Below are positions 19,965 to 50,013 of a stretch of DNA of 50,013 bases, one piece after another. The notes beneath the pieces are model-generated. The model was not told the DNA's origin and did not search any database. It saw nothing but the letters and a program-made list of their open reading frames with translations. The stretch lies in the sequence record OZ346186.1. One strand, written 5' to 3'. Each line of letters begins with the position of its first letter. The stretch's first letter is position 1. Source of the DNA: a phage. The position numbers and the translations under genes were made by a program.

Positions 19965-20192
19965 TTACATACTGCAATCAGCGTTTTTAAAGTTATCAAT
20001 ACTTACCCACTGAAAATTAAACGGATATCCAGCCTTAACAAGAGTGCGGTCGCCAACTCGTTTTACTCCAAAAATAGCAACTGAATACTGCATACCGCTA
20101 TTTTCATAAATAGCCGTGCATTCACGCTTAGGCATATTTGCGCAACCAGTCAGGGTTGCGGCTGCAATCAAAACGGCGATTAATTTTTTCAT
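19965..20192 (-). CDS. lipoprotein, Cor-like superinfection-exclusion candidate
   Basis: 75 aa, lipobox LTGC after 16-aa signal peptide; located just after tail genes as cor is in T1/phi80-type phages; preceded by box promoter. Confidence 0.5.
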   Translation of the reverse strand: MKKLIAVLIAAATLTGCANMPKRECTAIYENSGMQYSVAIFGVKRVGDRTLVKAGYPFNFQWVSIDNFKNADCSM

Positions 20193-20223
20193 CTTGGTAT
20201 CTCCTTAGTTGTTGTTGGTTGCA

Positions 20224-20267
20224 ACTATACACGATCTTGCGGCGGTCGTTTAGCAAAAAGTGCTATT
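20224..20267 (-). promoter_or_regulatory. conserved box (variant) + TATAGT, promoter cassette for Cor-like lipoprotein gene
   Basis: minus-strand box 20249-20267, -10-like 20224-20229, 18-nt spacer. Confidence 0.5.
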
Positions 20268-20340
20268 CTGTTCTTTTTGTTTTCCTGCGTTCTCAAATCT
20301 GCGGAGGCGTAAATTTAGCGCAAAAAGTGAGCAACAATAG

Positions 20341-20520
20341 AGCGTAATAAATACAGATAAATATATATATATATATATAAATCAATAAGTTAGCAGTATA
20401 TATATTTATATTTGTTTTTTCTTGTTATCTATGTTTTGTGTGATTTTGTGTGTCTGGTAATTTTATGTGGTTGTGTATGTGTCAGTGATTGTGTGTGTCT
20501 ATATATCTATATACGGCGCA
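20341..20520. repeat. AT-rich (TA)n and GT-rich low-complexity region with IHF-like site AATCAATAAGTTA; homolog of 40501-40720
   Basis: (TA)9 at 20361-20379; 15-mer aaatcaataagttag at 20379-20393; TGTG-rich 20431-20500. Confidence 0.6.
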
Positions 20521-20635
20521 AATGGAGGAACAAGAGAACAAAAAGACAACAAAGATATTTATCAATCACTTACATGTAAATTTTGTTATCCGATTCGCCT
20601 GGAACGTTGTTAGAACAGAAAAAACAAAATAACTG

Positions 20636-20663
20636 TTGACTAAACGCATTAAATAGCTAAAAT
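20636..20663 (+). promoter_or_regulatory. sigma70-like promoter TTGACT-16-TAAAAT upstream of exonuclease gene
   Basis: hexamers read directly at 20636-20641 and 20658-20663. Confidence 0.45.
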
Positions 20664-20692
20664 GCAGGCATACCAACAAACGAGGGCAAATA

Positions 20693-27162: not shown

Positions 27163-27636
27163 TTAGCAATTAGTGCTTTCAGGTTTATACAGGAATCCTC
27201 CAGGTTCATAATCTGACATTCTTACCACTCGCAACATTTCACGCTTATCACATCTCTTTGTGAGCGGTTTGCCATTGGAATCAAATCGCAGATCTGGACG
27301 GCAGAATGACGCGCGATAGCCTTGACAACCATATTTCTTGTAATCGTTATGCACCTTTTGAGCGCCAGCGGCTGAAATCATACCGCGAACGCGCCACTGA
27401 TTTACAGTTTGCTGGCTAACGTTAAGACGCTTTGCCATTGCTGACACGCTGCCGTAATACTCAATAAGAATGTCAAGCCGTGCTTTTAGTCCGGCGCGCA
27501 CTTCATCTTTTAAAACATAGTATCCTGTAGGGCGCTTGCGCTTTTTCTTATCTTTACCCCGTCGAGTTCCGTTATTGCCATTAATTGTGCGCTTGTCAAT
27601 CTTGCCTGTTGATACTGCGATTCGCTGTTCTTTCAT
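27163..27636 (-). CDS. HTH DNA-binding protein (putative transcription regulator)
   Basis: 157 aa; basic N-terminus (KDKKKRKR) and helix-turn-helix-like AKRLNVSQQTVNQWR. Confidence 0.45.
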   Translation of the reverse strand: MKEQRIAVSTGKIDKRTINGNNGTRRGKDKKKRKRPTGYYVLKDEVRAGLKARLDILIEYYGSVSAMAKRLNVSQQTVNQWRVRGMISAAGAQKVHNDYKKYGCQGYRASFCRPDLRFDSNGKPLTKRCDKREMLRVVRMSDYEPGGFLYKPESTNC

Positions 27637-27648
27637 TATTCATTCTCC

Positions 27649-27692
27649 AATAGCATTTTTTGTTAAACGATGATTTAATGATTGTGTATTAT
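27649..27692 (+). promoter_or_regulatory. conserved box AATAGCATTTTTTGTTAAAC + 18-nt spacer + TATTAT (promoter cassette for helicase operon)
   Basis: box 27649-27668, -10-like 27687-27692; divergent from HTH regulator gene. Confidence 0.5.
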
Positions 27693-27725
27693 ACACGCCA
27701 AATGGCATTACTCAAAGGTTTTAGA

Positions 27726-29765: not shown

Positions 29766-30171
29766 TAAAGGCGATTATCTGGAGTTTTACGAAAGAGATC
29801 CGACAGATACTCTGAAAGAGGAATCGCACCAGATCGGGGCGTTTCAATGGGTAACTTATGCTCATCCTGAATTACTGGCATGGCATACGAAAAACGAGGG
29901 CGACAAGGGAATCGCCACCGCAATGATGGATCAGCAAGCCGGACTCGTTAAGGGCGTAAGTGATTTTATCATCCTGATTGGATTAAAAGGCCGTTACCCG
30001 TTTGCAGCAATTGAGATGAAACGCGTCAATAAGTCAGGCAAGGGGAAGGCTTCACCAGTCAGCAAGGAGCAAAAAGCCTTCTTGCGCCGTGTGCGTGAGC
30101 TTGGCGGATTCGCTGCCGTAACATACGGATATAAGCAATTCATGATCGCGGTAGAATACATGATGAAATAG
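29752..30171 (+). CDS. VRR-NUC domain nuclease
   Basis: 139 aa; D...E.K nuclease core (DFIILIG...AIEMKR) typical of VRR-NUC, commonly paired with phage helicases. Confidence 0.6.
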   Translation: MAMTDKGDYLEFYERDPTDTLKEESHQIGAFQWVTYAHPELLAWHTKNEGDKGIATAMMDQQAGLVKGVSDFIILIGLKGRYPFAAIEMKRVNKSGKGKASPVSKEQKAFLRRVRELGGFAAVTYGYKQFMIAVEYMMK

Positions 30172-30211
30172 CACTTTTTGTTAAAACAGGCGCGAAGGAT
30201 TGCGCCATAAT
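30167..30211 (+). promoter_or_regulatory. conserved box + hairpin + CATAAT (promoter cassette upstream of dam)
   Basis: box 30167-30187 includes stop TAG of VRR-NUC gene; hairpin ggcgc..gcgcc; -10-like 30206-30211. Confidence 0.5.
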
Positions 30212-30245
30212 AACACCAGTTCAACAAGCAACAGGTAATTAAGAA

Positions 30246-30947
30246 ATGAGCAAAGAAACCGAAGTGACATTTGAACAAATAGAACGCGAAACATTCATTG
30301 GCAATGCTCTCGCTACTGGTGGTCATTACCAGGCTGTTAAACCAAATCAATATTTCAAAGTGACTGGCAACCGATATAACGGCAGCAATACGCCGGACAT
30401 TGTGCGCGATTTGTGGTCTACGCCGTATGAGCTTGTCGCATGGATGGAAAGCGAATACGGTGATTATGACATCGACGCGGCGGCAAGCAAAGAAAATGCT
30501 GTATGTGAAAAATTCTACAGCAAGGAAACAAATTGCTTAAAGCGTTGGTGGGGTAGTAATAAGCATATATGGCTGAATCCACCGTACAGCAATATTACTC
30601 CATTTGTTAAGAAGGCGATTGAGCAAATGGAGCACAACAACCAGATCGACATTCTGTTACCTTGCGACACGTCAACAGGATGGTTTTATGAGGCGCAGCA
30701 GCGCGCAGCGGAAATCATCTGGATCACTGGCGAAGTTTACCAGGAGGACGGAACAGAATATTCCCGCACAGGACGCCTTGCGTTTACCTCGGCTCTTACA
30801 GGTAAGCCAGTGCAGGGAAACAACAAAGGAAGCGTTATTTTCATCATGCGCGAACTTAAAGAAGGTGAGCAGCAGAAAACTCGATACGTTAAAATCAGCG
30901 ACATTTGCCCTTCGGTGGCAGACCGTCGCGCACGGAAACGGAGCTAA
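30246..30947 (+). CDS. dam: DNA N6-adenine methyltransferase (Dam-like)
   Basis: 233 aa with NPPY catalytic motif (LNPPYS). Confidence 0.75.
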   Translation: MSKETEVTFEQIERETFIGNALATGGHYQAVKPNQYFKVTGNRYNGSNTPDIVRDLWSTPYELVAWMESEYGDYDIDAAASKENAVCEKFYSKETNCLKRWWGSNKHIWLNPPYSNITPFVKKAIEQMEHNNQIDILLPCDTSTGWFYEAQQRAAEIIWITGEVYQEDGTEYSRTGRLAFTSALTGKPVQGNNKGSVIFIMRELKEGEQQKTRYVKISDICPSVADRRARKRS

Positions 30948-30951
30948 AACC

Positions 30952-31209
30952 ATGCAAAAAGAAAGAAGCGTTTATTTAAATGAAACTGGCGAATGGTTGT
31001 TATTTCGCGCTATGGTATGCGATTCACTTGATAAAAACCCTAACGTGAAAAAGATGATTGATTGCGATCCGTGGGAATTTTCAAGCGCATTAGATATGAG
31101 CTTTGAGGAGACAAAAAAACTCCCGCTTGAAAAATGGAACGAGAAAATCAGAAATGACATGCAAGAATTTGTCGATTCGTGGAATTTTCAGCACGGAATA
31201 ATCCACTAA
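30952..31209 (+). CDS. hypothetical protein
   Basis: 85 aa from ATG 30952 (SD ggag); track ORF 30604..31209 is the same frame extended over dam. Confidence 0.55.
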   Translation: MQKERSVYLNETGEWLLFRAMVCDSLDKNPNVKKMIDCDPWEFSSALDMSFEETKKLPLEKWNEKIRNDMQEFVDSWNFQHGIIH

Positions 31210-31252
31210 TAGCACTTTTTGTTAAAACGCCCGACCTTGTGTCGGGCATAAT
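31208..31252 (+). promoter_or_regulatory. conserved box + hairpin + CATAAT
   Basis: box 31208-31228; hairpin gcccgac..gtcgggc; -10-like 31247-31252. Confidence 0.5.
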
Positions 31253-31284
31253 TATTTCATCAAAACGAACAAGAGGAAAACAAA

Positions 31285-34985: not shown

Positions 34986-36569
34986 TTACCCCAGCAATGT
35001 TGGATTTACGAAAACAACGCCATTAATCACACAAATATAATTTCTTTCTTCAAGCATCGGCAGCAGTTGCGTTTCCATACGCTTCATTACGCCAGCCTGA
35101 CCAACAAACGGCTTAACTTTTCGTGCAGCCTCATATATGGCGCGCACATTCAAGATTCCCTTGTTAGCCTTACCGTGTCGAGTGATAATCTCGATTAGTT
35201 TACCCATTTCAGCATCATCACCAGCATAGCCAGAAGCGTTGGCGGCGCTAATGTATGTTTTGCTCAACTCGCTAAACATCAGCAGTGCTTCTTGAACGGT
35301 TTCAACTTCAATCTCTTTCGACTTCTGAGGGTATCCACCAGGATTAAACCAGTTGCGGATAGTGTGCAAAACCGAAGCAATCCTGATCACCTGCTTATCC
35401 ATTTTGCCAAGAGCACCGCGCAGCATTGTATGCGAATACTTTCCGCCATCGGCAAGGTGCGGTTCCATCTCCTGACGAGCCATGTTAAGAACTCGCATTG
35501 CTGATTTGCTGATCTTAAGCTGGATGTTTGATTCACTCATGATGTTATGGATCAGCTTGAAATATTGGCTTTTCAGTTCTCCATCAACAGGTTCATAAGT
35601 AGAATCACCGTTATCATCAACAAACTTTCTACGGCCTAAAAATGATTCCTCACGCACAAGCAAATAACGCTCACTCACACCGATACCGCGCGATCCTGCA
35701 TCCATGATGGCATTTATTGTTTCATCCTGGGCAATTACCGCCATACAGCCAAGAGCTTTAAAACTCATATTGTTGTCAGCGTTTGCACGAGCTATAGAAA
35801 CATGACCATGATCCCATGCTTTTAGCACAAGTTCGCTGTTGGTTTTACGTTCGCTATTGGCATATGTCAGACCTAAAAGGCTGTTAATACTTGTTGCCTC
35901 GTCTGAAATCACAGCAAAGTTACCCTGGCGATTGTTGATTCTTGCAAGTCCTTCCGGCGTTGTGTCGGACACAGGGAAAACGATGTCACACATCTTTTCC
36001 AGTTTTTCTTCCAGATCTTCTTTCTCCTGGTACAGAGACTCCATATCAGCGCCGGAGCGCTCGCTTTTCATCTCTTTTGCAAGACCTGCCAACTTTGCCT
36101 GAATCTTTTTTCTTTCCTTCTTTCGATGATCATTAATTCTTTCCACTTCAGCAACCATAGGAGCAAGTGCCAGGCTGTTAACGGCAGATTTACCAGTTGA
36201 TGGAGGCTGGCTTGTGACAACGTAAAGAGCGGTTGGTTGATCCGTTCCGTGATACTCAACCGTGAAGCGTCCAAGCATTGCAGCAGATACACAGCCGATA
36301 AAATGCATATATGCCGATGATTCAGGGAATTGAACAGATCGAGCAATGTTTCGCGCCAACTTTCCAACAACATCAACATCATTGCCAAGAGAAATTACAG
36401 GGTAGCGATCGTTTCCGTTATTAACATCATTAACCTCACCCCAAAAGCTGGACGATTGACGGTATCCGTTAGCCTGAATGGACACGCGCACCGGAGACAA
36501 TCCTTGTGCATCAGCTAATTCGATAATTTGTTTTGGTGTTAGTTTATTGGTTTCAAACGAAAAATTCAT
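34986..36569 (-). CDS. P-loop replication ATPase (helicase/primase-associated, putative)
   Basis: 527 aa from ATG 36569 (SD aaggag); Walker A SQPPSTGKS and Walker B-like AVISDE. Confidence 0.55.
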   Translation of the reverse strand: MNFSFETNKLTPKQIIELADAQGLSPVRVSIQANGYRQSSSFWGEVNDVNNGNDRYPVISLGNDVDVVGKLARNIARSVQFPESSAYMHFIGCVSAAMLGRFTVEYHGTDQPTALYVVTSQPPSTGKSAVNSLALAPMVAEVERINDHRKKERKKIQAKLAGLAKEMKSERSGADMESLYQEKEDLEEKLEKMCDIVFPVSDTTPEGLARINNRQGNFAVISDEATSINSLLGLTYANSERKTNSELVLKAWDHGHVSIARANADNNMSFKALGCMAVIAQDETINAIMDAGSRGIGVSERYLLVREESFLGRRKFVDDNGDSTYEPVDGELKSQYFKLIHNIMSESNIQLKISKSAMRVLNMARQEMEPHLADGGKYSHTMLRGALGKMDKQVIRIASVLHTIRNWFNPGGYPQKSKEIEVETVQEALLMFSELSKTYISAANASGYAGDDAEMGKLIEIITRHGKANKGILNVRAIYEAARKVKPFVGQAGVMKRMETQLLPMLEERNYICVINGVVFVNPTLLG

Positions 36570-36596
36570 TGATGATAACTCCTTTTTGATGCGGCA

Positions 36597-36641
36597 ATAA
36601 TACCGCACCAATGCTACCCGCATTTAACAAAAAATGCTATT
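36597..36641 (-). promoter_or_regulatory. conserved box (variant) + TATTAT, upstream of replication ATPase gene
   Basis: box 36621-36641 includes stop TAG of 36637..36858; -10-like 36597-36602. Confidence 0.5.
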
Positions 36642-37271: not shown

Positions 37272-37317
37272 GATTATGCCAGGCTTTTACACCTGGCTTT
37301 TAACAAAAAGTGCTATT
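37272..37317 (-). promoter_or_regulatory. conserved box + hairpin + ATAATC (minus strand)
   Basis: box 37297-37317 includes stop TAG of methyltransferase-like gene; hairpin gccagg..cctggc; -10-like 37272-37277. Confidence 0.5.
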
Positions 37318-38023
37318 TTGCGTTAGCTTCAAAGATTGCGCGAGCAAAACCGCGCGGTGTGAGGGAGCGGATCATCTTTGTACGAGATGATTTTCCGCCA
37401 GTTTTGGCCCAGCCAGGATTATCCTTGTCGTCCTCTTTCGGTAGGATCGTTGCGCGCGGAGGAATAACAAAGCCGTTACCAGTCCAAAGGCATGTTTTCT
37501 TAAAGTACCGATCCCGCGCCGGAATAATATCAGGGAAGTCGGGATGTTTATCATCTTCCGGCAGATAGCCAGCGTAATCGCACGGATGGAACGTATAATC
37601 AGGCTTACGCCATAACGTTGACAGCTTGCCTACAGGATTCTCTATCATGTAAGGAACACCGAAATAATCAGCGATATGCGCGGCTATTTTGCAAGTGTCG
37701 GCGGCCTCATTTTGGAAGTTAGGATTTTCCATGCGCTTTTTAGCCCAATGGCGAGATCCGCTGTTTGCTAATTGTGTGCAAGGTGGGAAGGCCATAATGA
37801 AATCAGGCTTACCCCAATTTTCAAGTTTTGCGGTATATTTGAATAGATCATCAATCCACACATTAACGTAAAAAATGTTATCATGGATTATGCGCACTGA
37901 TTGGTAATCGCCGTGATCGGCATCATCGTAATTAAAGCAAATGCATTTATAACCAGCATCAGCCCAATCTTTAACAGCCTTACCAGATCCATCAAACAAA
38001 GAGAAAATTAAACCTTTATACAT
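37313..38023 (-). CDS. DNA (cytosine-5)-methyltransferase-like protein (short)
   Basis: motifs FDGSG (motif I-like), FPPCTQ (PC motif IV-like), ENPVG (ENV motif VI-like); only 236 aa so target-recognition domain unclear. Confidence 0.4.
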   Translation of the reverse strand: MYKGLIFSLFDGSGKAVKDWADAGYKCICFNYDDADHGDYQSVRIIHDNIFYVNVWIDDLFKYTAKLENWGKPDFIMAFPPCTQLANSGSRHWAKKRMENPNFQNEAADTCKIAAHIADYFGVPYMIENPVGKLSTLWRKPDYTFHPCDYAGYLPEDDKHPDFPDIIPARDRYFKKTCLWTGNGFVIPPRATILPKEDDKDNPGWAKTGGKSSRTKMIRSLTPRGFARAIFEANAK

Positions 38024-39322: not shown

Positions 39323-39369
39323 ATAATATACCAATCAGAGGCGCATCGGTTTTAACAAAAAGTGCTATT
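39323..39369 (-). promoter_or_regulatory. conserved box + TATTAT (minus strand)
   Basis: box 39349-39369 abuts stop TAA of 39369..39635; -10-like about 39323-39328. Confidence 0.5.
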
Positions 39370-39635
39370 TAGTCCAGGAATTCGATTTCGCGCTCGCCAG
39401 TTAACGGATCTTTAATCCAGAATCCGAGCGCCTCACCGTAAATACCGCCATAGAATCCAAGCGCCGACAGATCCTCACCTTTAACAAATACCAGATCCCC
39501 GCTACGGCTTACGTGAGATACGTTAACGATAACCGGAAAGGTGCGATCCTTAAATGCAGGCCGCAGGGCGTAACACCCGTTATTGAGCAAACGTGCTTTG
39601 CGCTTAACTGGAATAGGTGCATTGATTCGCGCCAT
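39369..39635 (-). CDS. hypothetical protein
   Basis: 88 aa; stop TAA fused to box copy. Confidence 0.55.
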   Translation of the reverse strand: MARINAPIPVKRKARLLNNGCYALRPAFKDRTFPVIVNVSHVSRSGDLVFVKGEDLSALGFYGGIYGEALGFWIKDPLTGEREIEFLD

Positions 39636-39894: not shown

Positions 39895-40163
39895 TTCTTG
39901 ATCTCCTCAGCGATAAACTTCAGGACTTTGCGCAAAAACACTTCATTATTGATGGTCGCTGGCAATTCTTCTTTTACTTCTTGCGGCAGGTAAACGTTGC
40001 CATGCCAGGTTAAGCAATCGTAGTTGATACGATAAGAGCAAAGCCACTCGCAATCGTTATCCGCTTCCCAAATGCAGAGTTGCAGAACATCACCGAAATC
40101 CTCAACAGTCAGATCCAGACCGTGACGCTTTGCAAAGTTGAAAGTGGTTTTGCTGATGTTCAT
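39891..40163 (-). CDS. hypothetical protein (first gene of leftward early block)
   Basis: 90 aa; SD caggag; downstream of box promoter 40201-40246. Confidence 0.55.
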   Translation of the reverse strand: MNISKTTFNFAKRHGLDLTVEDFGDVLQLCIWEADNDCEWLCSYRINYDCLTWHGNVYLPQEVKEELPATINNEVFLRKVLKFIAEEIKK

Positions 40164-40200
40164 TTGCTTTCTCCTGATGGGTATCTCGTTTCGATGTGTG

Positions 40201-40246
40201 CATTATGCCGAATCCAGTCAGGCACGTTTTAACAAAAAGTGCTATT
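40201..40246 (-). promoter_or_regulatory. conserved box + ATAATG (minus strand), first promoter of leftward early block
   Basis: box 40226-40246; -10-like 40201-40206. Confidence 0.5.
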
Positions 40247-40260
40247 TGCTTACTGGTCAT

Positions 40261-40300
40261 TATTCCATCTATTCCATTAATCAGGAATAACAGGAATAAC
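40261..40300. repeat. short tandem direct repeats (attccat x2; caggaataa x2)
   Basis: tattccatctattccatt and caggaataacaggaataac read directly. Confidence 0.5.
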
Positions 40301-40500
40301 TCATTCGCGATCACCTGGATTGGGAGACTTTGAGTTTGGTCAATTTTAATCAAGTGATTAACTTTTTGTGTGGAGGGGATAGAGAAACGCGGCCTCTTGC
40401 GTCCTTTCCGGCAATCCTGGCGCGCACATCTGTTATTTTTGTTCCCCATGTTATCTCAAATAAGCCTCCGCACTTTTAGATAACAGAATCGGCGTTCATA

Positions 40501-40720
40501 AACAAAAAGAACAAAATAAAATTTATATATATACCCATAAAATCAATAAGTTAGTTATATATGTATTTATATTTGTTATTTACTGTTGAGCTTGTTATAT
40601 GGGTATATGGTGGGGTGGTATTGTTTGTGGTGATATGTATGTGTGATTGTATATTTTTTAATCAATGGTGATGTGTGGTGATTTTTGTATGTATATATAT
40701 GGGTATGGAGCAATCCTCCG
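40501..40720. repeat. AT-rich and GT-rich low-complexity region with IHF-like site; homolog of 20341-20520
   Basis: same 15-mer at 40540-40554 followed by similar tatat..tatttatatttgtt and GTG/TGG-rich stretch. Confidence 0.6.
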
Positions 40721-40899
40721 TCAACCAAGTCAACAAGGTCATTTTTAACAGAAAAACCAATGACTTAACTGAAGCATTTTGTTATCTTTAAACGCGCCAC
40801 ATGACAAAAATTGTTATTAAAACACAAAAATACATTGACACGTATGAAAGGCAAGGCAATAATGCATCCAGTTTAAACGCAACAAAAGGAGTAGACGCC

Positions 40900-41385
40900 A
40901 TGAGCGAAGAAAATATTAGCACCATGTCGCGTAGTGAGTTCTGCGATATGCTTCGCAGCCTGGGTGCGGCAATTGGTAGCGGCGAGCGTAACAATGTATT
41001 CATGCCAGCACTTTTCTTGTGCGCTAACGTGGAGAACGGCGACGCAATTACAGCATCGTACATGCGCCAGGTTGTAAACCGCGTACCAGAAGTGAAGCAA
41101 AAAGGCGTGATCAGCATTAAGCGAAAGGTGACTGATGAGGGTGATGGCTTTGTGTTTACGCTCACAGAAGCCAAAAGCAAGCCACGCGTTCTGACTGGTG
41201 AAGAAATCGACGAGATCGCAGAAAAGCGCGCAGAGAAGGCGGTAAGCAAAATTCTTAATCACCTGGTAAGCGTAATGCCAAATATCACAGACCTGGAAGG
41301 CGACAAACTTGCTGGAGCGTGTGAGGCTATCGGGCGCTACCAGGATATGATTCGTAAACTCGCTGGAGGAAAAGAGGATGAATAA
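40900..41385 (+). CDS. hypothetical protein (first gene of rightward block)
   Basis: 161 aa from ATG 40900 (SD aaaggag); track ORF from 40801. Confidence 0.55.
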   Translation: MSEENISTMSRSEFCDMLRSLGAAIGSGERNNVFMPALFLCANVENGDAITASYMRQVVNRVPEVKQKGVISIKRKVTDEGDGFVFTLTEAKSKPRVLTGEEIDEIAEKRAEKAVSKILNHLVSVMPNITDLEGDKLAGACEAIGRYQDMIRKLAGGKEDE

Positions 41386-41638
41386 GGCATTAATTGGAGT
41401 TTTGATTGCAATTGCTACCCTGACCGGATGCGAAAAGGCATCGGAATCAACGGTTGTCGTAGGCGTGGAGTCAGATTTCAAAGTCGGTCGCCTGTTCACT
41501 GTTGACGGATGCACAGCATACAGATTCTATGATAACGGTCGCGCGATCTATTACACCAATTGCAAAGGCGCAACGGATAGCACGTACAACAGCGGAAAGA
41601 ACGTAATGCACCAGCAAGTCACAACAGATATTAAATAG
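41378..41638 (+). CDS. lipoprotein
   Basis: 86 aa; signal peptide MNKALIGVLIAIATLTGC nearly identical to that of the Cor-like gene; stop TAG embedded in box. Confidence 0.55.
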   Translation: MNKALIGVLIAIATLTGCEKASESTVVVGVESDFKVGRLFTVDGCTAYRFYDNGRAIYYTNCKGATDSTYNSGKNVMHQQVTTDIK

Positions 41639-41678
41639 CACTTTTTGTTAAAACGCCAGGCGCAAAACCTGGCATAAT
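41634..41678 (+). promoter_or_regulatory. conserved box + hairpin + CATAAT
   Basis: box 41634-41654 includes stop TAG; hairpin gccagg..cctggc; -10-like 41673-41678. Confidence 0.5.
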
Positions 41679-41710
41679 AGCCTCATCGAAACGAGATTGA
41701 GGAAAACAAA

Positions 41711-41911: not shown

Positions 41912-42097
41912 ATGAAAACGAAATTAGTCCATAAATCAGAAATCAAGATCGGCGATACTGTGATTCACAACGGAGAGCTTAGAACGGTTGGCAAAGAGTC
42001 AATAAGCCACGATGAATTTATGGGGATTTTGTTGTTCGGTGACTCTTATCGTCTTGGTTACAAGATGGTTGAGCTTGTGGAAGAAGTGAAATTCTAA
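41912..42097 (+). CDS. hypothetical small protein
   Basis: 61 aa; SD aggtga; pattern SEIKIGDTV...G.LRTV shared with 42345..42527. Confidence 0.5.
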   Translation: MKTKLVHKSEIKIGDTVIHNGELRTVGKESISHDEFMGILLFGDSYRLGYKMVELVEEVKF

Positions 42098-42141
42098 ATA
42101 GCACTTTTTGTTAAAACTCAAAAACGATAACCAGGCATAAT
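42097..42141 (+). promoter_or_regulatory. conserved box + CATAAT
   Basis: box 42097-42117; -10-like 42136-42141; followed by about 200-nt leader. Confidence 0.5.
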
Positions 42142-42344
42142 AAATCACATAGACGGGCGGCAAGGATTGCTGCGGGAGAGGAGCAACGCAGGGGCTTGAT
42201 CGAAGTGTCATGATTCCCAACCGTTAGGCCAGAACTATCACACTCGCCACCAGGCAGAACGCTAGATAGGTCACTGAGCTGAGGCTACCGACGAAGTGAA
42301 GCCCGTCACCAAAGATTAAACGATTATTTATGTGAAAGGGGTTA

Positions 42345-47078: not shown

Positions 47079-47366
47079 ATGGCTAAAAGCAATCGTAAAA
47101 TGTTGATTAACGCATTCGAAAAGGCGGCGCTTGAGCGTGGTTGGAATGACTCATTTCACACGGCAAACTGTATCCGCCGTTACGGATTCAAGAATTGTCG
47201 CTCATGGGCGCGTCAAATGGCTTCATGGTATGATCTTGATGCGCATTACCTTGATATGGATTGCGCCCTGGTTGAAATGATTGAGCAGGCCGCATTAGAG
47301 GATCGACCATTAACGCAATCTGATTTTGACGATTTTGTGCGCGATGAAATCTATTACATGAGCTAA
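47079..47366 (+). CDS. hypothetical protein
   Basis: 95 aa from ATG 47079 (SD aaaggagg). Confidence 0.5.
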   Translation: MAKSNRKMLINAFEKAALERGWNDSFHTANCIRRYGFKNCRSWARQMASWYDLDAHYLDMDCALVEMIEQAALEDRPLTQSDFDDFVRDEIYYMS

Positions 47367-47409
47367 TAGCACTTTTTGTTAAAACTTCCGCGAGGGCATT
47401 TGTTAAAGT
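47365..47409 (+). promoter_or_regulatory. conserved box + TAAAGT
   Basis: box 47365-47385 overlaps stop TAA; -10-like 47404-47409. Confidence 0.45.
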
Positions 47410-47441
47410 GTCCTCATTGAAGCGAAACAGAGGAAATCAAA

Positions 47442-48747: not shown

Positions 48748-48790
48748 GGCGATATGCAGGTTTTTACCGTAAGACGTATCGCCTTTTTTA
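48748..48790 (+). terminator. terminator/attenuator-like hairpin in leader of 48802 gene
   Basis: ggcgata..tatcgcc + TTTTTT, about 60 nt downstream of sigma70-like promoter. Confidence 0.45.
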
Positions 48791-48801
48791 TAGGTGAATA
48801 T

Positions 48802-49492: not shown

Positions 49493-50013
49493 ATGGCTAA
49501 AAACGTTGAGCCAGCAGTAAAGGCTTGCAATTTTAAAAAACTATATAATAAACAATATGGCGATATTGCAAAAATGACAAAGGCGCACAAGTACACGCCG
49601 GAACAGGTATTTGATCTGGCTGTACGTTACTTTACGTGGGCTGAGGAAAACCATATACAGGCTGCGGAAACGGCATCCTTTCAAGGTGATGTATACGAAA
49701 GCAAGATTCACAAGCCGCGCGTGTTCACCTTAAATGGATTCCGCTTATTCGCTGGCCTTTCTGCTTCCGTGCTTGAAAAATGGCGACGCGAGCCAGGATT
49801 CAGCGATGTTATGGACTTTATCGACGGCGTTGTTTACGAGCAAAAATTCCAGCTTGCTGCAAACAATATTGTTAACGCCGGATTTATTGGTAAAGAGATC
49901 GGCATTGAAAAGCCAGCCACCGTTACCATTGAGAATAACACAAGCGCCAGCGTTGACGCTGTAACGGCGGAGGAGGTCAAAGAGGCGGTAATTGACATTT
50001 TGGAGAAGATATA
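49493..50013 (+). CDS. terS: terminase small subunit (3'-truncated by window end)
   Basis: ORF from ATG 49493 (SD aaggaggg) open to window end; last 2 nt TA plus window base 1 (A) would form TAA overlapping the terL ATG. Confidence 0.6.
   Translation, partial: MAKNVEPAVKACNFKKLYNKQYGDIAKMTKAHKYTPEQVFDLAVRYFTWAEENHIQAAETASFQGDVYESKIHKPRVFTLNGFRLFAGLSASVLEKWRREPGFSDVMDFIDGVVYEQKFQLAANNIVNAGFIGKEIGIEKPATVTIENNTSASVDAVTAEEVKEAVIDILEKI

Follow-up and report, generated by a model that had tools for sequence, protein, structure and literature searches.

A conserved two-copy intergenic module in a T1-like phage as a candidate replication origin

The origin of phage lambda is single and lies inside gene O, where four iterons of 18-19 bp are arranged in one orientation. 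Phage P4 makes use of two separated cis elements, ori and crr, which carry the same short repeat (of the TGTTCACC type) and are needed together. In archaeal origins of the ORB-DUE kind, and in the core origins of SV40 and the papillomaviruses, opposed repeats flank a DNA unwinding element (DUE), an arrangement that suits the head-to-head loading of MCM or SF3 hexamers. Phage SPP1 possesses two origins in which direct repeats are combined with an AT-rich DUE, both of which are bound by gp38 (PMC6316719), and in the origins of E. coli PICIs two sets of iterons flank an AT-rich region (PMC6092414).

T1 belongs to the founding T phages and is a notorious contaminant of laboratories and fermenters, and the family Drexlerviridae is now common in therapy and defence-system collections. 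Recent papers nevertheless report that the origin of the T1-like phages was not found and leave the intergenic repeats of the family unexplained (PMC11447400; PMC7718038); for phage TLS, no lambda-like iterons were found by the authors (PMC11447400). Our own search of the accessible literature found neither mapped origins nor transcription start sites or RNA-seq data for T1-like phages.

Two copies of one intergenic module

The DNA analysed here (sequence record OZ346186.1, of which the whole stretch of 50,013 nucleotides is called the window) belongs to a T1-like siphovirus of the genus Hanrivervirus, family Drexlerviridae, and is 99% identical to phage egaa. An initial annotation had singled out the 500 bp gap at 20193-20692 as the longest non-coding stretch and as a candidate origin or regulatory hub. 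It is not the longest, as the gap at 40164-40899, here called the right gap, measures 736 bp; the two together account for 2.5% of the window. The 500 bp gap holds one copy of a conserved non-coding module of approximately 370-400 bp that occurs twice and lies between divergent early promoters. A profile built from 21 left modules of non-Hanrivervirus phages, and hence from other genera only, was used in an nhmmer search and matched exactly two places in the window: the left module at 20265-20629 (plus strand, E 6.6e-51, model positions 4-358) and the right module at 40431-40830 (plus strand, E 1.3e-21, model positions 9-353). The homology to the right gap that had been placed at 40501-40720, in the same orientation, is therefore genuine but had been drawn too narrowly, since it embraces the whole module. 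Comparison with relatives, suggested as a check at the time, bears out the conservation of the region: the two-copy architecture is kept across several genera of the Drexlerviridae, full-length in both copies (E 1e-15 to 1e-51), and TLS, egaa, FritzSarasin and JakobBernoulli likewise have the full module in their right gaps. Right gaps of relatives were collected by means of BLAST hits and record ends; the downstream protein DUF7174 led to only two loci because its gene is not widely conserved. A degenerate pattern (GGCGYAAAT...RAACA...RAACA) run across IMG/VR returned 120 loci, mostly by chance, and was set aside; the profile accepted only the T1-like ones among them.

The left copy stands between the gene for a 75-residue lipoprotein that is 56% identical to T1 Cor and that for a 353-residue PD-(D/E)XK exonuclease, as the initial annotation had it, and adjoins the exo-erf-ssb operon. 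The right copy heads a leftward operon that includes the gene for a DUF3987 helicase (34986-36623, minus strand), which starts about 3.5 kb from it. DUF3987 proteins have been described as replicative helicases of an MCM-like type whose C-terminus carries a winged helix-turn-helix (wHTH) (PMC4889955). Genes for a primase and an SF2 helicase are found at 26-30 kb, with a gene for a 157-residue Cro-like HTH protein, a Cro/YdaS-like regulator, beside the primase gene (27163-27636, minus strand). The replication genes thus comprise a primase and the DUF3987 helicase, and there is no polymerase gene. Both the wHTH of the helicase and the Cro-like protein diverge between T1 and the phage of the window.

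The promoters on either side of the left module had been described correctly. Leftward transcription of the Cor-like gene would start from a box promoter at 20224-20268 on the minus strand, composed of a box (GAATAGCACTTTTTGCTAAACG, minus strand, 20247-20268) and a TATAGT element at 20229-20224. The box belongs to a family of 21-nt direct repeats with at least 15 copies; it corresponds to the aaATAGCACnnnTTGnTAAAA repeat described in the TLS paper (PMC11447400), matches the consensus, is intergenic and is oriented with its downstream gene. On the other side, a sigma70-like promoter for the exo-erf-ssb operon (TTGACT-16-TAAAAT, 20636-20663, plus strand, 10 of 12 matches) has spacing within the 16-18 bp range, is placed before the gene and is conserved across genera as TTGACTAAAcGC...GCTAyAAT. 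Its counterpart in TLS is P51; the sigma70 promoters predicted there number only three. As promoter-like matches in the region number three against 4.3 in shuffled sequences, the argument for this promoter rests on its conservation and position. The right gap has the same frame, with a 100% copy of the box at 40226-40247 (minus strand) and a sigma70 promoter (TTGACA-17-AATAAT, 40835-40863, plus strand) that leads into the rightward early operon and corresponds in position to TLS P01. In TLS the third predicted sigma70 early promoter, P57, lacks the module, so that the module is more than a mere component of an early promoter.

Architecture of the module

A feature of the module that has not been described before is a set of pentamer triplets (YGTTH, or DAACR in the other direction), spaced 8-10 bp apart and placed in opposed orientation around a TA-rich core. 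In the left copy, read on the plus strand, array a1 (20266-20294) consists of three YGTTH pentamers, TGTTC at 20269, TGTTT at 20278 and CGTTC at 20288, 9-10 bp apart; it is kept across genera and has array b1 as its inverted counterpart. Array a2 (20412-20440) again holds three YGTTH pentamers, starting at 20413, 20423 and 20432. Opposed to a1 and a2 is b1 (20527-20556, GGAACAAGAGAACAAAAAGACAACAAAG), with GAACA at 20528 and 20536, the region of which forms a highly conserved GTGAACAAtGGAACAcAAAAACAACAA block in the cross-genus alignment. The a3 element (ATTTTGTTATCC) and array b2 (TAGAACAGAAAAAACAAAATAAC) follow at 20580-20633 and adjoin the sigma70 -35 hexamer. The corresponding parts of the right module are a1' (40431-40458), b0' (40500-40519), a2' (40574-40600) and a3' (40775-40786). 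The resulting layout, <<< >> TA <<< spacer >>> < >>, was found again in all 15 modules that were mapped in the Tempevirinae.

As sequences, the pentamers are both short and degenerate. Isolated GAACA or TGTTC words are common elsewhere in the window, so that it is the phased arrays that are distinctive and not the density of the words; the triple-pentamer pattern has two matches in the window, one in each gap, of which a2 is one. Pentamer positions are 76% identical across genera compared with 52% for the rest of the module, a difference not equalled in any of 364 circular shifts, and are the best-conserved positions of the module, conserved about as well as coding DNA. In T1, the two equivalent gaps (2.5% of the genome) hold all four GTGTAACA sites and all six TGTAACA/TGTTACA sites, and so show the same design with T1's own repeat, although the orientation of the pentamers appears to be mirrored relative to the Tempevirinae. 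The right module of egaa contains four successive GTTAT units. Degenerate as the pentamers are, the arrays are thus conserved, largely confined to the two sites and positioned on either side of a putative DUE.

This element is the TA-rich core (20346-20411, plus strand), made up of the (TA)9 run at 20362-20379 noticed in the initial annotation, an IHF-like 15-mer at 20379-20393 and TATATATATTTATATTTG. No duplex stretch in the window is less stable than the cores of the two modules when free energy is calculated over 100 bp (z +5.5 for the left, starting at 20345, and +4.9 for the right; the next stretch has 3.2), and a core in which 50-55 of 60 positions are A or T was seen in 20 of 20 modules examined. 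Both cores are therefore AT-rich and of unusually low duplex stability, as is expected of a DNA unwinding element. The perfect (TA)9 is limited to the closest relatives, with TATATATACATACATATA in its place in other Hanriverviruses.

Beyond a2 lies a GT-rich, C-poor tract, followed by TATATATCTATATA (20441-20513, plus strand), the most G+T-rich stretch of the window. That such a tract is real is clear from its composition: G+T reaches 82% at 20403-20502 and 81% at 40592-40691, higher than anywhere else in the window (mean 50, sd 6.4), and only five C residues occur within 20395-20500. In the right module the tract extends over about 40600-40712. Across the Tempevirinae its composition is conserved while its sequence and length vary. 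The left tract contains GTGTC three times, and its C residues were considered as primase sites of the T7 type; this idea was rejected because the tracts of TLS-type modules and of the right copy lack GTC. A G+C islet, CGGAGGCGTAAATTTAGC (GGCGTAAAT), lies at 20302-20319 on the plus strand and is repeated as GGCGCAAAT at 20515-20523, the islets being seen as conserved ccGGCGyAAAT blocks in the cross-genus alignment.

The IHF-like 15-mer of the initial annotation (AAATCAATAAGTTAG), at 20379-20393, has an identical copy within the right TA core at 40540-40554, and these are its only two occurrences in the window even when up to three mismatches are allowed. Its core AATCAATAAGTTA fits the consensus WATCAANNNNTTR, which has 10 matches in the window against 4.3 +/- 2.3 expected; four of the ten fall in the two gaps, all on the plus strand (20380, 20560, 40348 and 40541). 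The match at 20560 belongs to a second IHF-like site, TATCAATCACTTA (20560-20572, plus strand, an exact match to the consensus), which is kept as AATCAnnnACTTA, often with one mismatch, in the left and right modules of other genera. The right module of the window has an IHF-like AACCAATGACTTA at 40755-40767. The first site has been lost from TLS-type left modules. With consensus matches in an AT-rich context that are conserved in relatives, these are predicted IHF sites.

The earlier pairing of origin and regulatory hub is thus retained, with much stronger evidence that the module is a functional element. The emphasis that had been laid on (TA)9 and the GT tract is not retained, as these are its least conserved parts in sequence and the repeat arrays are the conserved ones. 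What had been a vague AT-rich gap is now a defined and conserved two-copy module, with named sub-elements and coordinates.

Possible functions

From sequence comparison we infer that, for the replication origins of this phage family, the modules are the best candidate at present, and the reading that we favour, with a probability of roughly 0.4, is that they are paired origins dependent on a phage initiator, like SPP1 oriL/oriR or the PICI ori. A phage DNA-binding protein would occupy the YGTTH/DAACR triplets, approximately one helical turn apart and facing each other across the AT-rich core; the Cro-like HTH protein and the winged helix at the C-terminus of the MCM-like DUF3987 helicase are candidates, and as both differ in T1 the comparison with T1 favours neither. 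IHF may introduce bends at both WATCAANNNNTTR-type sites, and negative supercoiling generated by the divergent box and sigma70 promoters could aid melting of the TA core. After loading of the helicase, priming would fall to the Zn-ribbon primase of the phage and elongation, in view of the missing phage polymerase gene, to host Pol III. By analogy with SPP1 oriR, the left copy, directly upstream of exo-erf-ssb, may also be a place where stalled forks give way to recombination-dependent concatemer synthesis. A more specific form of this model, in which the opposed repeats of T1-family origins serve head-to-head loading of the DUF3987 helicase around the DUE via its winged helix and the exo-erf-ssb copy acts as an SPP1-oriR-like switch to recombination-dependent replication, is tentative and on present evidence somewhat unlikely; if true, it would place the origin logic of archaea and eukaryotic viruses in a classic coliphage. 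The module is not an origin of the oriC type, as exact DnaA boxes (TTWTNCACA) are absent from both gaps, matches with one mismatch number none in the left gap and two in the right against 2.7 expected, and GATC sites (268 in the window) do not cluster, each gap having one and the modules none. Chi sites, looked for alongside, were also absent. Neither module lies in or beside an initiator or helicase gene, a position that is typical of origins though not universal, and replication of T1-like phages might be mainly recombination-dependent, which also counts against an origin.

The strongest competitor is an early-promoter control region, a possible but rather doubtful explanation, in which a phage regulator, for instance the Cro-like HTH protein, would use the arrays as operators or enhancer sites and loop the approximately 250 bp from a1 to b1 around IHF bends to switch both divergent promoters on or off, with the A-tracts of b2 and b0 acting as UP-like or curved DNA to strengthen the sigma70 promoter. 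Both copies do share one frame, with a box promoter on the left and a consensus sigma70 promoter on the right, and the sigma70 promoters concerned make up two of just three that are predicted for TLS; a1 adjoins the box and b2 the -35, at positions expected of activator, operator or UP elements, and this speaks against an origin. The genome encodes a Cro/YdaS-like regulator and the IHF-like sites are conserved. However, a conserved architecture of about 300 bp with an extreme AT core and triplets at -100 to -350 exceeds the known needs of early promoters, one of the three promoters does without the module, and the regulator's own gene has no arrays upstream. Operators of Cro-type dimers are typically palindromic, unlike direct triplets at 8-10 bp spacing. 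The arrays might instead bind a host factor, for example a response regulator of the OmpR/ArcA type or a nucleoid protein that recognises phased A-tract/TGTT repeats, so that early phage functions would be coupled to host physiology. Direct TGTTA/TGTTC repeats about one helical turn apart resemble the direct repeats of response regulators, and the egaa right module has its run of four GTTAT units. The ArcA box, TGTTA-N6-TGTTA, is strictly phased at 11 bp, whereas start-to-start spacing is 8-10 bp in all arrays; moreover the repeat differs between phage lineages on the same host (GAACA, GTTAT, GTGTAACA, GTAATC), an indication that the partner is encoded by the phage and not by the host. This explanation is improbable.

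A role as a pac or terminase recognition region is suggested by the T1 and TLS records, which start at the mapped pac end inside the right gap, by several GenBank records of relatives that were opened inside these gaps and by P1 pac, which likewise has repeats flanking the cleavage region and an IHF site. It is nonetheless very improbable for the module, because the mapped ends lie approximately 190-215 bp to its left, beside a separate palindromic array, the left copy is some 20 kb from any mapped end and a second site would give a second headful series, and no such series has been reported for T1 or TLS. The array in question (ATTCCAT twice and AGGAATAAC twice, 40259-40300) is found only in the right gap, outside the module, and is itself a candidate pac recognition site; the same array precedes the mapped genome end of T1 by about 40-70 bp, and in TLS this place is taken by another palindrome pair. 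The appearance of (TA)n and GT tracts as slippage products, and the variable sequence and length of the latter, would suit an AT-rich spacer or low-complexity DNA that has no function and separates divergent operons, but a full-length architecture kept across genera in both copies, with repeat positions conserved to the degree of coding DNA, already disfavours this and makes it highly improbable. For a small RNA or a small protein the odds appear slighter still. Mechanical ORFs exist at 20412-20579 and 20138-20347 and a few depositors have annotated a "hypothetical protein" here, but the ORFs are broken by indels of 1 and 2 nt between close relatives and no ORF is conserved. Rfam gave no match in the whole window at gathering score and, in a permissive search of the left gap, only mir-297 (E 0.52); no conserved internal promoter or terminator was found in the module, and its location between two outward-facing promoters means that transcription is not expected. 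Single-strand DNA folds of the two modules were no better than those of shuffled sequences (z -0.07 and -1.31), for which reason both a structured RNA and a hairpin or ssi-type origin were dropped.

Should the modules prove to be origins they would offer a bacterial model for the recruitment of an MCM-like helicase; should they be control regions instead, they would constitute a switch that governs two of three host-type early promoters.

Comparison with described origins

With the modules read as origins, several features are shared with SPP1. Both phages are virulent pac-type siphoviruses with two separated and similar origin elements, one of them in a long intergenic region, and both have genes that serve the switch to concatemer synthesis, namely those for an exonuclease, an annealing recombinase, an SSB and a junction resolvase. 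There is, however, no sequence similarity; the SPP1 boxes are direct repeats bound by gp38 and its helicase is of the DnaB type with a loader, whereas the window phage has opposed pentamer triplets and an MCM-like DUF3987 helicase. SPP1 oriL lies inside the initiator gene and neither module of the window is so placed. The PICI and SaPI origins share with the modules short, lineage-specific iterons that flank an AT-rich putative melting region, in a replicon of the primase/helicase type, but are situated immediately beside pri-rep and occur once per element. The modules come as two copies with IHF-like sites, are set between divergent promoters and lie far from the genes for the primase and the helicase.

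The lambda origin resembles the modules in having iterons beside an AT-rich stretch, in the help that nearby transcription gives to initiation and in its use of the host polymerase; it differs in its single copy within gene O and in the uniform orientation of its iterons. With P4, a satellite phage, the modules share the arrangement as two separated elements with a common short repeat; the T1-family primase is annotated as P4-alpha-like, and TGTTCAC occurs in a1 of TLS-type modules. Alpha nevertheless fuses primase, helicase and DNA-binding domains that belong to separate genes in the window phage, and the likeness of the sites comes without established homology. With the archaeal ORB-DUE origins and those of SV40 and the papillomaviruses the modules share their layout only, the window phage having no homologue of Orc1/Cdc6 or T-antigen.

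The paired modules and their genomic setting

The 500-bp region at 20193-20692 (the left gap) lies between divergent genes, a minus-strand gene for a 75-aa lipoprotein that is 56% identical to T1 Cor and a plus-strand gene for a PD-(D/E)XK exonuclease (DUF3799), after which come the Erf and SSB genes. The window has the T1 gene order and starts at the large terminase gene. The region is 99% identical in the Escherichia phages egaa, herni and G29-2 and 88-94% identical in ~60 further Hanrivervirus genomes (Drexlerviridae, Tempevirinae), and most depositors have placed no annotation there in relatives. The initial annotation took it for the longest non-coding stretch, but it is exceeded by the right gap (40164-40899), which spans 736 bp and has divergent small early genes on its two sides. 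One arm of a 48-nt inverted repeat (20137-20184 against 41389-41436, 79% complementary) falls in the Cor-like lipoprotein gene, at the end that encodes the signal peptide, and the other falls where an 86-aa ORF (41378-41638) starts; the repeat probably represents a pair of related lipoprotein signal sequences encoded on opposite strands.

The reported homology to 40501-40720 in the same orientation is real, but its extent is far wider, 20265-20629 against 40431-40830. The 560 nt preceding the exonuclease gene were collected from 45 IMG/VR relatives and the Tempevirinae members were aligned; an nhmmer profile made from 21 aligned sequences, none from Hanrivervirus, matched the window significantly in two places only. 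These were the left module, 20265-20629 (E 6.6e-51), and the right module, 40431-40830 (E 1.3e-21; model positions 9-353 of ~365), the remaining matches being reverse-strand self-similarity within both modules' regions and one match at E=1. Full-length modules were also recovered by this profile from the right gap of each of TLS, JakobBernoulli, FritzSarasin (Warwickvirus) and egaa; BLAST had missed the egaa copy. Each genome thus carries a pair of paralogous modules, 350-400 bp long and pointing the same way. In the Shigella phage 2019SD1 (MT360681 / IMGVR_UViG_2974632794_000001; L081 4408-4628) an insert of ~170-220 bp, which duplicates an interior segment of the exonuclease gene, splits the left-module GT tract, and the sigma70 promoter seems to be lost along with the region of the start codon; the rearrangement may be real or may have arisen in assembly. 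The records of egaa (MN850607), G29-2 (MK373798), BEK1-23 (MN158211) and BEK26 (MN158216) are opened within the right or left gap, which may stem from terminus calls close to pac or from assemblies that broke at the TA-rich cores.

Layout, composition and repeat arrays

Comparison with relatives' intergenic regions, proposed at the outset as a check, revealed a module layout conserved across genera. One fixed order, from array a1 to the -35 hexamer, emerged when sequences were aligned across genera and motifs were mapped in 15 modules. First comes a1, in which three YGTTH pentamers stand 9-10 bp from one another, then a small G+C islet (GGCGTAAAT) and b0, a pair of DAACR pentamers that is degenerate in the left copy of the window. 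The TA-rich core is next, followed by a2 (a further YGTTH triplet) and a GT-rich spacer that varies in both sequence and length and ends in TATATA. After GGCGyAAAT stand b1 (a DAACR triplet, which mirrors a1 in inverted orientation), another IHF-like site (AATCAnnnACTTA), a3 (ATTTTGTTATC), b2 and finally the -35 hexamer. Within the TA-rich core lies the IHF-like 15-mer named in the initial annotation, found at 20379-20393 with an identical copy at 40540-40554 and no others in the window with up to 3 mismatches. The IHF consensus WATCAANNNNTTR matches the window 10 times, where shuffling gives 4.3 +/- 2.3, and four of the ten matches, every one of them on the + strand, fall inside the two gaps. 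The (TA)9 is likewise present (20362-20379), its perfect form being private to the closest relatives, as others read TATATATACATACATATA.

By nearest-neighbour energies the two cores are the window's least stable stretches at both 100 bp and 200 bp (instability z +5.5 and +4.9; next stretch +3.2), and A+T makes up 50-55 of 60 core positions in all 20 modules examined. The GT-rich tract was also borne out, both cores being the window's top two 100-mers for G+T (82 and 81 against a mean of 50, sd 6.4), with 5 C in 106 nt of the left tract. A G+T-rich 80-mer comes after the core in all 20 modules (58-70/80 in Tempevirinae, 47-57 in T1-like phages), and the bias is therefore a conserved composition, not a conserved sequence.

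Pentamer positions, defined from the window sequence alone, were 76% identical across ten other-genus sequences against 52% at other module positions, a difference matched by none of 364 circular shifts. Lone pentamers are not distinctive within the window; the triple pattern occurs twice in 50 kb, once in each gap. The favoured word moves to GTTAT/ATAAC in right modules and is GTAATC/GATTAC in lineage L037. T1 (Tunavirinae) has TA-rich cores in both equivalent gaps with a different word: these gaps make up 2.5% of its 48.8-kb genome and hold 4/4 of its GTGTAACA sites and 6/6 of its TGTAACA/TGTTACA sites. As the word is lineage-specific while the layout is conserved, the arrays look like candidate binding sites for a phage-encoded protein.

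Promoters, the box family and the palindromic array

Each module carries a leftward 21-nt box promoter and a rightward near-consensus sigma70 promoter. Both had been predicted for the left gap and are present, the minus-strand box at 20247-20268, a member of a 21-nt repeat family, and the exonuclease promoter (TTGACT-16-TAAAAT) at 20636-20663. Only three sigma70 promoters, P01, P51 and P57, were predicted in TLS by its authors; P01 and P51 are those at the right edges of the two modules, and P57 drives the regulator-primase operon without a module. Its equivalent in the window is the sigma70-like TTGAGT-16-TATAAT (~27680-27708, minus strand). It lies in the gap of 90 bp that separates the Cro-like regulator gene from the SF2 helicase gene, together with a 21-nt box for the helicase at 27649-27670 (plus strand). 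The likely start codon of the helicase gene is ATG 27727 rather than the mechanically listed TTG 27660.

The box AAATAGCACTTTTTGTTAAAAC has at least 15 window sites, among them 41632-41679, 42095-42142, 31206-31253, 30165-30212 and 47363-47410, and 39349-39370 and 37297-37318 on the minus strand. About 20 nt past it stands CATAAT, often with a small hairpin between, and then a conserved leader, TCATCGAAACGAG...GAGGA. The spacing from the box TTGTTA to CATAAT is too long for a normal -35 role, and the whole resembles a class of promoters that depend on an activator. In TLS there are 18 such intergenic repeats of unknown function, which the authors leave as an open question (PMC11447400).

Most of the right gap's extra length is a segment with a palindromic array (40259-40300; ATTCCAT x2 facing AGGAATAAC x2) that occurs in this gap only and is separate from the module. 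It adjoins the mapped pac end, lying just left of the position that matches that of T1, and is a candidate terminase/pac recognition site. T1 shares it (NC_005833 ~48760-48800), and in TLS (AY308796 ~49790-49830) its place is taken by another palindrome pair, AGACCGATTGGTCT x2. ORFs across the right gap (window 40102-40449, minus strand; JakobBernoulli bas07_0066) overlap the box promoter and this array, and are likely spurious because they are not kept between near-identical genomes.

Origin or promoter control

The candidate origin or regulatory hub of the initial annotation stands as a real, conserved and better defined feature, which we infer to be of a known kind, an origin-like iteron/DUE module or a promoter-control hub. 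The modules are not oriC-like, as they contain no DnaA boxes and no GATC cluster; they also lack Chi. GATC is absent from both modules against 268 sites in the window (~1 per 187 bp), a frequency consistent with the phage-encoded Dam-like methylase (30246-30947). The module is probably not pac, since the mapped pac end (T1 and TLS record starts) lies in the right gap 190-215 bp to its left. A known RNA was rejected for want of a usable Rfam match, a stable single-strand fold by z of -0.07 and -1.31 for the two modules, and a coding region by 1- and 2-nt indels among close relatives that disrupt the mechanical ORFs.

According to two recent papers (PMC11447400, PMC7718038), the origin in T1-like phages is still to be identified, and literature searches for an origin map, transcription start sites or RNA-seq of the family came back empty. 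The phage encodes a Zn-ribbon primase, an SF2 helicase, a Cro/YdaS-like HTH protein adjoining the primase, a DUF3987 protein, exo, Erf, SSB and VRR-NUC proteins, but no polymerase. DUF3987 proteins have been described as replicative helicases of the MCM-like (SF6) type that carry a winged helix at the C terminus (PMC4889955). The main rival reading, somewhat less likely than the paired origins favoured below, is that the arrays are operator or enhancer sites controlling both flanking promoters, a role in keeping with the abutment of a1 and b2 on the promoters and with the Cro-like regulator. Both candidate binding proteins are 58-60% identical between T1 and the window phage and differ in their recognition regions as well, so both stand as candidates. 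Promoter control and origin function are in any case compatible.

We tentatively favour paired origins dependent on a phage initiator (probability about 0.4), on the grounds of the iteron-like layout, the precedent of SPP1 and the position of the left module directly in front of exo-erf-ssb. The layout has the look of iteron-type origins: opposed arrays of repeats, spaced by roughly one helical turn, flank the genome's weakest duplex, IHF-like sites would bend the module DNA and transcription from the divergent promoters would underwind the DNA between them. The defined module makes the replication start site of the T1 family directly testable. In SPP1 there are likewise two separated origins of similar organisation, both bound by one protein, and the suggestion has been made that the second sets off the change to recombination-dependent concatemer synthesis (PMC6316719).
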